Positions 1-11,118 are shown, counted from the stretch's first letter. The stretch: DNA of 17,810 nucleotides from a virus (IMGVR_UViG_2541047874_000006), one strand, 5' to 3'. The notes: generated by a model from the sequence alone, not told the origin. Translations and numbers: made by a program.

Positions 1-348
1 TTACGAATTACTACGGCGCTGTTGCTTTTCCGCATGTACGCGTTTCACTATCTTATAAATCCATTGCAGCGTCAGATTATATTTCTTCGCTAATTCGGCG
101 TAGTTGCGACCATCGCACTCGCTATAGATTTGGTAGTCACGCTCCGACGCCCGTCCGGAGATCCCTTTCGGGAAATAAATGCTTTGCCCACCCCAGTTAC
201 GCATCATTCGGTCGGCAATGGCAAAGCCCACATTTTCCGCCGATGAGCTGTCGAGATTGATGCTCTCAATCAGAACTTGCGATGCATGAAACGCCAGGTC
301 GTTAATGATCTCCGGTGTCCGGGCCATCTCTTTTGATTTTCGTATCAT
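1..348 (-). CDS. Mor/C-family transcriptional activator (phage middle/late gene activator-like)
   Basis: 115-aa ORF; motif block WGGQSIYFPKG...RD..IY...DGRNYAELAKKY..T...IYKIVKR aligns by eye with the conserved core of phage Mu Mor (GGQ.YIP.G...RD..I...F.GRN..EL...Y......YK..RR), recalled from memory. GGAG lies 7 nt upstream of the ATG at 346-348 (minus strand). Confidence 0.75.
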   Translation of the reverse strand: MIRKSKEMARTPEIINDLAFHASQVLIESINLDSSSAENVGFAIADRMMRNWGGQSIYFPKGISGRASERDYQIYSECDGRNYAELAKKYNLTLQWIYKIVKRVHAEKQQRRSNS

Positions 349-560: not shown

Positions 561-588
561 TTTACACGATACTGTATGTGCATACAGT
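561..588 (+). promoter_or_regulatory. Possible sigma70 promoter overlapping the LexA box (-35 TTTACA 561-566, -10 TACAGT 583-588, 16-bp spacer)
   Basis: Hexamer matches by eye; the LexA box overlaps the spacer and -10. An alternative leftward promoter (TGTAAAAT on the minus strand at 559-566) is equally plausible, so direction is uncertain. Confidence 0.25.
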
Positions 589-589
589 A
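570..589. promoter_or_regulatory. Candidate LexA (SOS) box TACTGTATGTGCATACAGTA
   Basis: CTGT-N8-ACAG with perfect 8-9 bp palindromic arms (ATACTGTAT / ATACAGTAT); only the central bases differ from the E. coli consensus TACTGTATATATATACAGTA. Sits in the AT-rich divergent intergenic region between the Mor-like gene and the lysis genes. Confidence 0.55.
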
Positions 590-885
590 TTATTTTTACC
601 TGTAGTGTAAAAAGATCGTTTCCCTCACAGTCGCTGACTTTCTTAAACAAACTTTAAAAATCAAATGACTATGGACTATTCCTACGATTCACCGTCCTCT
701 TTTCCCTGCATAATGACGCGCTTATTCTCCAGGACACCTTTTGCTCTTTTATTAATGGGTGGATTTATTAGCAAGCATGTTCATTTATAGAGGATCTATT
801 TTTTAAAGTTATTTATTAAAGCTTTTTTCATTCTTCACTGGAGGGATCTGGCGACACTAAACGCTCACTTATCAGGAGATATCGT

Positions 886-1173
886 ATGAAAAAAGTCACT
901 TTTCCCCGTCTTTCCGGCTGGCTGGTCGCTTCCGTCGCGCTGTTTGTCGCGATCGGCTGGACATCTTCCGCACAGATCCCGGTTGTCATTTATAAACTAA
1001 GTCTGGTTTCGCTCGCCGCTGTGCTGGGATACTGGCTCGATCGCAGTCTGTTTCCCTGGGCGCGGCCTGACTCATTTTGCCCCTGGGAAGAGGCGCGATG
1101 CTGCGCGGCGGCAATGATTCGTCGGGCTATCATCGTTGCAGCCGTCTGCCTTTCCGTCGCGTTAGGACTTTAG
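886..1173 (+). CDS. Small membrane protein with three predicted transmembrane segments, putative holin/pinholin
   Basis: 95 aa with three hydrophobic stretches (GWLVASVALFVAIGW, VVIYKLSLVSLAAVLGYWL, AIIVAAVCLSVALGL); AGGAG 6 nt upstream of the ATG; sits immediately before the endolysin gene. Function inferred from position and topology only. Confidence 0.4.
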   Translation: MKKVTFPRLSGWLVASVALFVAIGWTSSAQIPVVIYKLSLVSLAAVLGYWLDRSLFPWARPDSFCPWEEARCCAAAMIRRAIIVAAVCLSVALGL

Positions 1174-1175
1174 TG

Positions 1176-1781
1176 ATGCAGGTAAAATTTCTCGCGCTAA
1201 TTACTCTGTTCGCGTTCTTCCCGCTTAACGCATCTGAACCGCCGCGAGCATCTCTGGCATGGCGAAACGAACTGATTCGAACTGCACGGGAAGTCTGGGG
1301 ACTGAACGCCCCGGTGGCAGACTTCGCCGGGCAGTTGCACCAGGAATCAGCCTGGCAGCCAATGGCGCGTTCCCCCGTCGGCGCACAGGGTATGGCGCAA
1401 TTTATGCCTGCCACAGCGACATGGATAAGCCAGTTGTATCCACAGCTACGTGAAAACAAGCCCTATAACCCAACCTGGGCGATTCGCGCATTGGTGCAAT
1501 ATGACCAGCATTTGTGGAAAAACATCTCGGCGAAAAATGGCTGCCAGCGTATGGCGTTTACCCTAAGCGCCTATAACGGTGGTCAGGGATGGGTTAATCG
1601 GGATAAAAAACTGGCCGCATCCAAAGGGTTAGATGCCACCATCTGGTTTGGTCATGTTGAGCACGTCAACGCCGGGCGTAGTGCCGCAAACTGGCGAGAA
1701 AATCGTCACTATCCGAAGATGATCCTCTATCAACATGCCGCCCGCTACTTACTCTGGGGGCAGGCAAGCTGTCTTCACTAA
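1176..1781 (+). CDS. Endolysin, lytic transglycosylase (SLT domain) with N-terminal signal or signal-anchor sequence
   Basis: SLT family motifs QESAW (catalytic Glu context), GAQGMAQFMP and AYNGG; hydrophobic N-terminus MQVKFLALITLFAFFPLNA. Start placed at ATG 1176, 2 nt after the upstream gene stop; the longer ORF-track start at 1077 overlaps the previous gene. Confidence 0.8.
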   Translation: MQVKFLALITLFAFFPLNASEPPRASLAWRNELIRTAREVWGLNAPVADFAGQLHQESAWQPMARSPVGAQGMAQFMPATATWISQLYPQLRENKPYNPTWAIRALVQYDQHLWKNISAKNGCQRMAFTLSAYNGGQGWVNRDKKLAASKGLDATIWFGHVEHVNAGRSAANWRENRHYPKMILYQHAARYLLWGQASCLH

Positions 1782-1792
1782 TCAGAGGGCCG

Positions 1793-2107
1793 ATGAAACT
1801 TAGTATCGATTTTTGGGAAGTGATCTCCCTTATGCTTTCCTTCGTTGGATTAATGTTTGCTGCCGGAAAATTGCTGTTAGCGCAAATTGAAAAAAGACTT
1901 AATGAGCGTTTTGAATCTCTGGAAAACGCGCGCCGGGAATCAGAAACAAGCTGGTCGAAACTGGAAAGAGAATTTCTCGAATTTCGTGCCGAGCTTCCGC
2001 TGCATTATGTCCGCAGAGAAGATTATCTTCGTGGCCAGGCAGTATTAGAAGCAAAGCTGGATGCCTTATATAGCAAAATAGAGCTATTACAACGTGGCAG
2101 CTATTAA
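1793..2107 (+). CDS. Membrane-anchored coiled-coil protein, putative i-spanin (Rz-like)
   Basis: 104 aa, N-terminal TM segment (VISLMLSFVGLMFAAGKLLL) followed by a charged heptad-like region; located directly after the endolysin. No embedded o-spanin lipoprotein ORF was found on inspection. Confidence 0.4.
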   Translation: MKLSIDFWEVISLMLSFVGLMFAAGKLLLAQIEKRLNERFESLENARRESETSWSKLEREFLEFRAELPLHYVRREDYLRGQAVLEAKLDALYSKIELLQRGSY

Positions 2108-2111
2108 ATAC

Positions 2112-2145
2112 ATCCCCACCTTTACATAAGTGTGGGGATTTTTTA
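2112..2145 (+). terminator. Intrinsic terminator after the lysis cassette
   Basis: Stem ATCCCCAC (2112-2119) pairs with GTGGGGAT (2132-2139), followed by TTTTTT (2139-2144), immediately after the stop codon at 2105-2107. Confidence 0.6.
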
Positions 2146-2253
2146 TAGCCATTCAATTTTTTCTCTAAATCACATTAAAAGATTCTTCACCTTCACTGCT
2201 TCAGAATACATTTCAACGATAACGAAGTGAGCAGTAATTAAGGAATACCCTAT

Positions 2254-10665: not shown

Positions 10666-10695
10666 AACCCGCCTGATGGCGGGTTTTCTCTTTTT
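10666..10695 (+). terminator. Intrinsic terminator-like hairpin inside the baseplate gene block
   Basis: AACCCGCC (10666-10673), loop TGAT, GGCGGGTT (10678-10685), then TTCTCTTTTT; lies in the 98-bp gap between the spike gene and the wedge gene. Confidence 0.5.
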
Positions 10696-10758
10696 AATCA
10701 ATCAGTTTTCTAAATCGCTTTAATATCCCCGCCGCCTGTTCAGGGCGAAAATACCCTC

Positions 10759-11118
10759 ATGAACACGAAAACACGCCCCTCTACGCTGCACTGGCAACCC
10801 GCCTTGCAGCGGCCTGAAGAATACGTCTGCGGACTGGATGATATTCACCAGGCAATACACATCATTCTGCGCACACCGCGCGGCAGTGATCCCCACAGAC
10901 CGCTGTTTGGCAGCAACTTGTGGCACTACATCGATTATCCCATCGAGCGGGCGATCCCGCATGTGGTAAGGGAGTCGGTAGAGGCCATCCGCCAGTGGGA
11001 ACCGCGCTGCCGGTTGCTGAAGGTGACACCGGTAATCGACGGGGAACATCTGACGTTACGTGTGCAATGGCGCGCCGCTGACGGCGTAATCAACTCAACG
11101 GAGGTGTTATGGCGATAG
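10759..11118 (+). CDS. Baseplate wedge protein, GPW/gp25 family
   Basis: 119 aa with the conserved segment GLDDIHQAIHIILRTPRGSDPHRPLFGSNLWHYID typical of P2 gpW / T4 gp25-like proteins. Confidence 0.8.
   Translation: MNTKTRPSTLHWQPALQRPEEYVCGLDDIHQAIHIILRTPRGSDPHRPLFGSNLWHYIDYPIERAIPHVVRESVEAIRQWEPRCRLLKVTPVIDGEHLTLRVQWRAADGVINSTEVLWR

Follow-up and report, generated by a model that had tools for sequence, protein, structure and literature searches.

The window analyzed here, by which we mean the whole 17,810-nt stretch of DNA, opens with a minus-strand gene, mor (1..348), encoding a 115-amino-acid transcription activator of the Mor/C family. Its Pfam match to Mor (PF08765, E=7e-38) bears out the first-pass annotation, which had described the product as Mor/C-like. 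On the plus strand follows a lysis operon (886..2107) composed of a holin gene (886-1173; Holin_2-3, E=1e-27), an SLT transglycosylase gene (1176-1781; SLT, E=2e-15), and a gene for a 104-amino-acid membrane protein (1793-2107), in the order of BcepMu gp21-gp23. Immediately 3' of this operon lies an intrinsic terminator (2112..2146, plus strand; hairpin of -15.5 kcal/mol, z=-4.7, then UUUUUU), whose hairpin is conserved in orthologues. From 2254 on, the window carries genes for Gp37, sheath, tube, tape measure, baseplate, and fibre, and Pfam confirms Gp37, sheath, and tube as well as Mor, holin, and SLT. A further intrinsic terminator (10666..10695, plus strand; hairpin of -15.3 kcal/mol, z=-4.6, then a U-rich run) is situated 3' of the baseplate gene V, and the two terminators would separate lysis, tail, and baseplate/fibre units. 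No known RNA was detected in an Rfam scan of the window. The gene order corresponds to the BcepMu late region minus the early and head genes, and the locus thus appears to descend from a transposable phage of the BcepMu type, in a form that is head-less and resembles a tailocin.

A chromosomal island with 93% identity to the window is located between lysC and yjbD in E. coli, where 197 (about 4%) of the 5,426 complete genomes carry it, and Salmonella STM4198-4219 is 76% identical to the window. Orthologous lysC-adjacent islands were found in E. albertii, Phytobacter, Superficieibacter, an Enterobacter-like contig (L011), and a metagenome contig (L010). Two further loci, one in a degraded genome (L014) and one in a truncated prophage ending at mor (L015), were uninformative. 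A profile search of genome contigs with the Gp37 alignment returned one locus only, that of Phytobacter, and a word-based protein search with Gp37 returned Escherichia relatives only. Nothing on regulation emerged from the literature when the Salmonella locus tags or enterobacterial tailocins regulated by Mor were looked for; a paper on an ST131 "tailocin" concerns a different, P2/R2-pyocin-like prophage.

Mor is 81 to 100% identical among E. coli, E. albertii, Salmonella, and Phytobacter, and its C-terminal helix-turn-helix (HTH) region is invariant in six lineages. It shares 49% identity with BcepMu gp01 and 27 to 34% with Mu Mor and C. The spacer between mor and the holin gene contains a LexA (SOS) box, TACTGTATGTGCATACAGTA (570..589, no strand assigned), which is an exact match to TACTGTAT-N4-ATACAGTA, a pattern for which 0.01 occurrences are expected by chance. 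It fits TACTG(TA)5CAGTA with the CTGT-N8-ACAG core intact and, together with the flanking CATTTTACAC, is conserved in 7 of 8 lineages. Judging from this match, mor is probably under SOS control, its promoter being the one we infer to be the target. The LexA-controlled promoter may fire on either strand, a minus-strand TAAAAT being one candidate for it. The same spacer holds further conserved blocks at 611-630 and 634-660. A 41-codon open reading frame at 665-790 was discarded, as it is not conserved and the region contains frame-breaking indels.

Mor and C bind a 16-bp imperfect dyad in which a G/C-rich spacer of 6 bp separates two inverted repeats of 5 bp each (PMC4390567, PMC2582627, PMC4287176), located at -51 to -36 and centred at -43.5 (PMC4390567, PMC4287176, PMC2582627). 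Promoters of this family have a -10 but no -35 element, and the alpha-CTD touches A/T-rich DNA just upstream of the dyad (PMC4390567, PMC2582627, PMC4287176). In the Mu genome record, we read the annotated Pm promoter as AGTAA-AGCCGG-TTAAT, followed after 22 nt by TATCCT; this reading, made from the GenBank sequence and the text descriptions in the papers, fits the published 5-6-5 dyad with its G/C-rich spacer at -51 to -36 (PMC4390567, PMC4287176). Three sites in the window, which we designate P_lys, P_tail, and P_W, share a comparable element, a 16-bp 5-6-5 dyad (nnTAA-N6-TTAAW) separated by exactly 22 nt from a -10-like hexamer downstream. P_tail and P_W fit the dyad, which is perfect in the Phytobacter version and in that of L012, a Mu-like contig (TTTAA/TTAAA), whereas P_lys has a good left arm only. 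The 22-nt distance is the same at all three sites as in our reading of Mu Pm, the +1 positions being predicted. Orthologues have the arms and the spacing in common but differ in the 6-nt spacer and in the 22-nt stretch. The -10-like hexamers GACACT, CAGAAT, and GAAAAT have a conserved A2 and T6 in common. A scan for consensus sigma-70 promoters found none at any of the three sites, and the hexamers 16 to 18 nt upstream of the -10s match TTGACA at no more than two positions, leaving no -35 element. Each box is preceded by A/T-rich DNA, namely, a T-tract at 2157-2162 (P_tail), a block at 798-814 (P_lys), and AGTTT (P_W), which may serve as contacts for the alpha-CTD. Counted in the window alone, three such sites against 1.09 expected are not significant (P=0.12).

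At the tail promoter, the Mor box, TCTAA ATCACA TTAAA followed by AG (2164..2179, plus strand), comes after the T-tract, and 11 of 12 loci each contain the string yTAA-N6-TTAAAAG a single time. With a position weight matrix (PWM) trained on non-Escherichia and phage sites only, P_tail was the top match in the window (45 bits). The -10-like hexamer CAGAAT (2202..2207, plus strand) reads CAAAAT in Salmonella and AATAAT in the metagenome locus L010, and its distance from the box is fixed at 22 nt, with 23 nt in Superficieibacter. The conserved part of the tail leader can be written as TTTTyyyTAA-N6-TTAAAAG with the -10-like hexamer 20 nt further on, those 20 nt being variable. Transcription is predicted to start near 2214.

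P_W, the third promoter of this type, lies in the gap between V and W, beyond the second terminator. Its box, TCTAA ATCGCT TTAAT followed by AT (10709..10724, plus strand), was the second PWM match at 18.1 bits; in random windows the highest score averaged 7.7 and peaked at 20 overall. The box is conserved in E. coli, Salmonella, Klebsiella phage KP12, and BcepMu. The W start codon (10759) follows the -10-like hexamer GAAAAT (10747..10752, plus strand) by only 7 nt and has no Shine-Dalgarno sequence, and the W mRNA is therefore probably leaderless.

At P_lys, the Mor box ATTAA AGCTTT TTTCA (815..830, plus strand) has a degenerate right arm. It scored poorly with the PWM built from tail-promoter and phage boxes and was not recovered by it, so that its assignment is based on spacing and position instead of a sequence score. 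AyTAA-AG...-TTyCr is conserved in all seven lineages. The -10-like hexamer GACACT (853..858, plus strand; GATACT, CATACT, or GAGACT in other genera) retains its A2 and T6, its distance of 22 nt from the box is constant, and transcription is predicted to start near 865. Upstream of and partly overlapping this box is a second box-like element, TTTAA AGTTAT TTATT (802..817, plus strand), within an invariant AT-rich block (798-821). This element is identical in 6 of 7 representative lineages (9 of the 10 loci aligned) and is lost in the Enterobacter-like L011. It could possibly act as an auxiliary Mor site or as an alpha-CTD contact. Over the whole lysis leader, the conserved string is ATTTTTTAAAsTTATTTATTAAAG...TTTyCryTCTT, followed by GAyACT. 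Two Mor-type promoter candidates on the minus strand were rejected: one reading outward from the AT block of P_lys (802-817, -10 CATGCT), whose -10 is not conserved, and one at 633-648 (TTTAA AGTTTG TTTAA, 23 nt, TACACT), whose -10 is not conserved in Salmonella.

The same box recurs in related phages at corresponding places. Scanned with the rule nnTAA-N6-TTAnn, 21 to 23 nt, and a -10-like hexamer, the BcepMu genome (63% G+C) contained 2 sites against 0.09 expected, located just upstream of the holin gene gp21 and the head protease gene gp32, and the KP12 genome contained 10 (0.54 expected), among them sites that precede the holin gene, the head operon, W, and dam. In the V-W gap of BcepMu we found TTTAG-CCGGCT-TTAAT, 22 nt, CAACAT. 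L012, whose Mor is 47% identical, carries TTTAA-AGCGGT-TTAAA, 22 nt, TAGCAT between mor and the holin gene. Distances to the start codon are retained as well: from box to holin ATG they are 56 nt in the window, 56 nt in BcepMu, and 55 nt in KP12, and from box to W ATG they are 35 nt in both the window and KP12, the geometry of the BcepMu V-W gap being alike.

The conservation and geometry of these sequences, together with the presence of the box in related phages, support the view that the locus is an ordinary Mor-controlled, domesticated, head-less BcepMu-type tail cluster, in which P_lys, P_tail, and P_W each have a Mu-type Mor box; we assign this reading a probability of roughly 0.8. According to it, DNA damage would relieve LexA repression at the SOS box and allow Mor to be made. 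By analogy with Mu Pm, a Mor oligomer on a box centred near -43.5 would stand in for the absent -35 contact and bring sigma-70 RNA polymerase to the promoter. Occupation of the three boxes by Mor would then turn on the lysis, tail, and baseplate genes.

The first-pass annotation had likewise proposed that a Mor-family activator serves both the lysis and the tail leader, and both do carry what looks like an activator-dependent promoter of the Mor type. It placed the activator site elsewhere, in a motif shared by the two leaders. The letters and coordinates that it gave for this motif, CATTCTTCACTGG at 829-841 and GATTCTTCACCTTCACTGC at 2181-2199, were found correct on re-reading, as were the start codons at 886 and 2254. 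The two copies share the 9-mer ATTCTTCAC (830-838 and 2182-2190), which occurs nowhere else in the 17.8-kb window in its exact form, and TTCACTG (834-840 and 2192-2198). However, the similar distance from the ATG that had been claimed holds only loosely, as the distance from the start of the 9-mer to the ATG is 56 nt in the lysis leader and 72 nt in the tail leader.

The statistical case for the shared word depends on how it is framed. With one mismatch allowed, ATTCTTCAC had 4 matches in the window against 3.96 expected, and TTCACTG had 4 against 1.97. When the two intergenic regions, which are AT-rich and 537 and 146 nt long, were shuffled with dinucleotides preserved, a shared word of at least 9 nt arose in 44% of shuffles, and on the opposite strand the same two regions have another 9-mer, of equal length, in common. 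Restriction to the last 100 nt of each leader lowered the proportion to 8%, and the most favourable framing, in which the copies had to differ by no more than 16 nt in their distance from the ATG, lowered it to 2.8% (nominal P of about 0.03). A 9-mer common to two AT-rich leaders is thus weak evidence, and its recurrence is not clearly beyond chance. An alternative alignment of the leaders on TTTTTT-N10/11-ATTAAA(A)G was dropped because it leaves the two copies of that pattern 10 to 11 bp out of register with the -10; the alignment of the boxes adopted here results from anchoring on the -10.

Placed on the promoters described above, the motif occupies roughly -35 to -16 as counted from the conserved -10, between the box and the -10. 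The lysis copy (829..841, plus strand) takes in the final two bases of the P_lys box's right arm and continues into the 22-nt stretch, whereas the tail copy (2181..2199, plus strand) lies wholly within the variable stretch between the P_tail box and its -10. ATTCTTCAC begins at the last base of the right arm in P_lys and 3 nt past the right arm in P_tail, which puts the lysis and tail copies out of register by 3 bp, whether measured from the Mor box or from the -10. The conserved element common to the leaders is the box. Since the HTH region of Mor is invariant, its DNA site would be expected to be conserved too. The search for the motif in related elements, which the first-pass annotation had suggested as a check, showed that the copy in the tail leader is not conserved outside Escherichia: it is absent in five lineages (Salmonella, Phytobacter, Superficieibacter, L010, and L011), the counterpart being ACGCCTGATGCCTGATAC in Salmonella and CATTCACCGCGCCATCAC in Phytobacter. 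Even among Escherichia variants, the tail copy has substitutions within the motif, e.g., TTCGCTG and CTCTCAC.

It could be argued that ATTCTTCAC...TTCACTG is itself the common Mor site of the lysis and tail promoters, given that the exact 9-mer is confined to the two leaders, that the nominal P is about 0.03 with the position limit, and that E. coli A37 has the motif as well and E. albertii has part of it. We consider this very improbable. A site for an activator with an invariant HTH region should not be missing from five non-Escherichia tail leaders, nor from P_W and all phage Mor-type promoters compared. Moreover, the motif is not a dyad, its position of about -35 to -16 is not the one published for sites of the family (-51 to -36), and its two copies differ in register by 3 bp. 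Its absence from P_W and the phage promoters, the 3-bp shift, and its position between box and -10 together argue that it is not the activator site. The earlier proposal is thus partly supported, being right about the Mor regulon and wrong about the site that it named.

The same restriction to Escherichia might instead reflect a second, lineage-specific regulator acting on lysis and tail genes on top of Mor. Consistent with such a site, ATTCTTCA occurs in both leaders of E. coli and of E. albertii, and TTCAC is tandemly repeated in the tail leader. Yet no known site matches, the motif is interrupted by the substitutions just mentioned among Escherichia variants, and P_W is without it; as chance is an adequate explanation, there is hardly any likelihood that such a regulator is at work here. 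An RNA structure in the tail leader formed by TTCAC and GAAGTGAG was likewise judged unlikely because the predicted 5' untranslated region is unstructured and the motif lies upstream of the predicted start.

One part of the lysis copy behaves differently. TTCTTC (831-836) is the sole portion kept across genera, with 5 of 7 lineages having it and a sixth coming close, which indicates that it is under some constraint; ACTG is variable and already differs in E. albertii. This is compatible with the motif, or its TTCTTC core, being a sub-element of the promoter, either as the bases adjacent to the dyad on its downstream side or as a contact for sigma region 4 that offsets the weak arm of P_lys. 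In the Mu promoters Pm and Plys, bases immediately downstream of the dyad do matter (PMC2582627). The equivalent positions in P_tail and P_W, however, are unconserved and differ between promoter classes, so that TTCTTC would be peculiar to P_lys instead of forming a shared motif, and coincidence would still have to account for the tail copy. As an account of the shared motif we therefore regard this as unlikely, while the core may contribute to P_lys specifically. The likeness of the two copies is probably due to chance or to similarity specific to the Escherichia lineage, in a stretch that is unconserved in both promoters.

Returning to the reading in which Mor acts through the three boxes, the regulatory map of the locus is corrected to one with three predicted promoters of the Mor-box type, two terminators that would insulate the units, and an SOS box, and it applies to E. 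coli, Salmonella, and other enterics. The bases to mutate are those of the TAA and TTAA arms and not ATTCTTCAC, the motif itself being unimportant. Beyond this locus, the late promoters of BcepMu-type phages and of the tailocins derived from them can be recognized by the rule nnTAA-N6-TTAAW, 22 nt, and a -10. It is tempting, though decidedly tentative, to speculate further that the cluster represents an undescribed rewiring, with mor placed directly under LexA, P_lys weakened to delay lysis, and a leaderless, Mor-dependent baseplate transcript. If so, the degenerate right half-site, the auxiliary upstream site, and TTCTTC would cause lysis to need more Mor than tail synthesis does, and a tuning element specific to P_lys would include the TTCTTC core of the motif in the lysis leader.

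Comparison with Mu reveals both the common plan and the points of departure. As at Mu Pm, there is a Mor-family activator, a 5-6-5 dyad with nnTAA and TTAAT-type arms around a G/C-containing hexanucleotide spacer, a distance of 22 nt from box to -10, no -35 element, and A/T-rich DNA just upstream of the box. Whereas Mu, with Plys, PI, PP, and Pmom as its late promoters that depend on C, proceeds in two steps, from Mor to C, the window apparently uses one regulator for all promoters. Its mor gene is divergent and lies beside a LexA box, while Mu mor stands at the end of the repressor-controlled early operon, and P_lys deviates from the Mu pattern by its degenerate right arm and the extra AT-rich block upstream.

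The BcepMu-like group (BcepMu, KP12, and L012) is closer, with Mor proteins 45 to 49% identical to that of the window, the box placed before the holin gene (55 to 56 nt) and before W (35 nt), and the gene order holin, SLT, spanin-like, gp37, gp38, sheath, and so on to V, then W, J, I, and H. In contrast to these phages, the window has no transposase, early, or head genes and is fixed beside lysC in several enterobacterial genera, and its promoter before gp37 resembles the phage head-operon promoter.

Pseudomonas R-pyocins are SOS-induced R-type tailocins that are governed by PrtR and PrtN, the P-box, and cleavage of the PrtR repressor. Like them, the window encodes a head-less contractile tail cluster with its own lysis cassette and a dedicated positive regulator and is probably induced by DNA damage. 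Unlike them, it employs Mor in place of PrtN and a different site, and its control appears to be exerted directly through a LexA box.

The predicted Mor-box promoter that precedes the tail operon, P_tail (window 2164-2207), carries a box almost matching that of a phage head-operon promoter. The boxes compared with it were TCTAA AGCAGA TTAAA AG in the head-operon promoter of Klebsiella phage KP12 (L017 16635-16650) and TTTAA AGCAGA TTAAA AG in Phytobacter (L003 3896-3911). Because of this likeness, we suggest that in the tailocin a deletion of the head genes joined the head promoter to gp37. Between promoter and gene, the tail leaders outside Escherichia contain a short hairpin (about 20250-20298 in the Salmonella locus L002), whose sequences differ but are each self-complementary; in Salmonella, for example, the arms read GAGAGA...TCTCTC, and those of Phytobacter read CGGAGA...TCTCCG. 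The Escherichia leader has a 15-nt deletion at this place, and its predicted 5'UTR (window 2214-2253) lacks structure. The annotation of gp37 in Salmonella SARB27 is apparently 60 nt (20 codons) short (L002 20299 versus 20359); the upstream ATG aligns with the start in E. coli and in the window.

Upstream of the box of P_lys, the predicted lysis-operon promoter, lies an AT-rich block of 24 nt (window 798-821). It was free of differences in 9 of 10 aligned loci, representing 6 of 7 lineages, and absent from the Enterobacter-like locus L011. A second box-like element is found inside it at 802-817, and the block might tune the timing of lysis, either as an auxiliary site for Mor or as one for the alpha-CTD.

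The spacer between mor and the holin gene also contains a perfect predicted LexA (SOS) box, TACTGTATGTGCATACAGTA (window 570-589), which together with the flanking CATTTTACAC is kept in 7 of 8 lineages. This box overlaps a plus-strand promoter-like site, TTTACA-16-TACAGT, and is situated directly upstream of a candidate minus-strand -10 (TAAAAT) for mor. Two further conserved blocks, AAAGATCGTTTCCCTCACAG (window 611-630) and TTAAACAAACTTTAAAAATCAA (window 634-660), are present in this spacer. The latter resembles a minus-strand Mor box (TTTAA AGTTTG TTTAA), a similarity that could be a sign of Mor autoregulation; no conserved -10 was found after this Mor-like box. In E. coli of the IAI39/CE10 type, a 1.9-kb insertion consisting of a ClbS/DfsB-family gene and an ISEc53 transposase is located within the same regulatory spacer (L018 982-2739), and it may uncouple the lysis promoter from mor or from the LexA box.

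Downstream of the fibre genes, the window encodes a Mutator-family (IS256-like) transposase (15576-16784) and an RlaP nucleotidyltransferase (17019-17810), both on the minus strand. In E. coli A37 their place is taken by a gene of the slipin family together with a nucleotidyltransferase.

Between the baseplate genes V and W (window 10666-10761), a third predicted Mor-box promoter, P_W, follows a strong terminator. The W start codon lies 7 nt past the -10 hexamer and lacks a Shine-Dalgarno sequence, which suggests that the W mRNA is leaderless. In Salmonella, a gtrABC O-antigen glucosylation operon is inserted into the tail cluster (L002 28737-31993), with the end of V on one side and the P_W promoter on the other. 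The V-W promoter geometry of the window is the same in KP12 and in Burkholderia phage BcepMu. KP12 additionally carries a Mor-type box, AGTAA ATCGCG TTAAT (L017 24958-24973), upstream of its DNA adenine methylase gene, an arrangement reminiscent of the C-dependent mom promoter of Mu.
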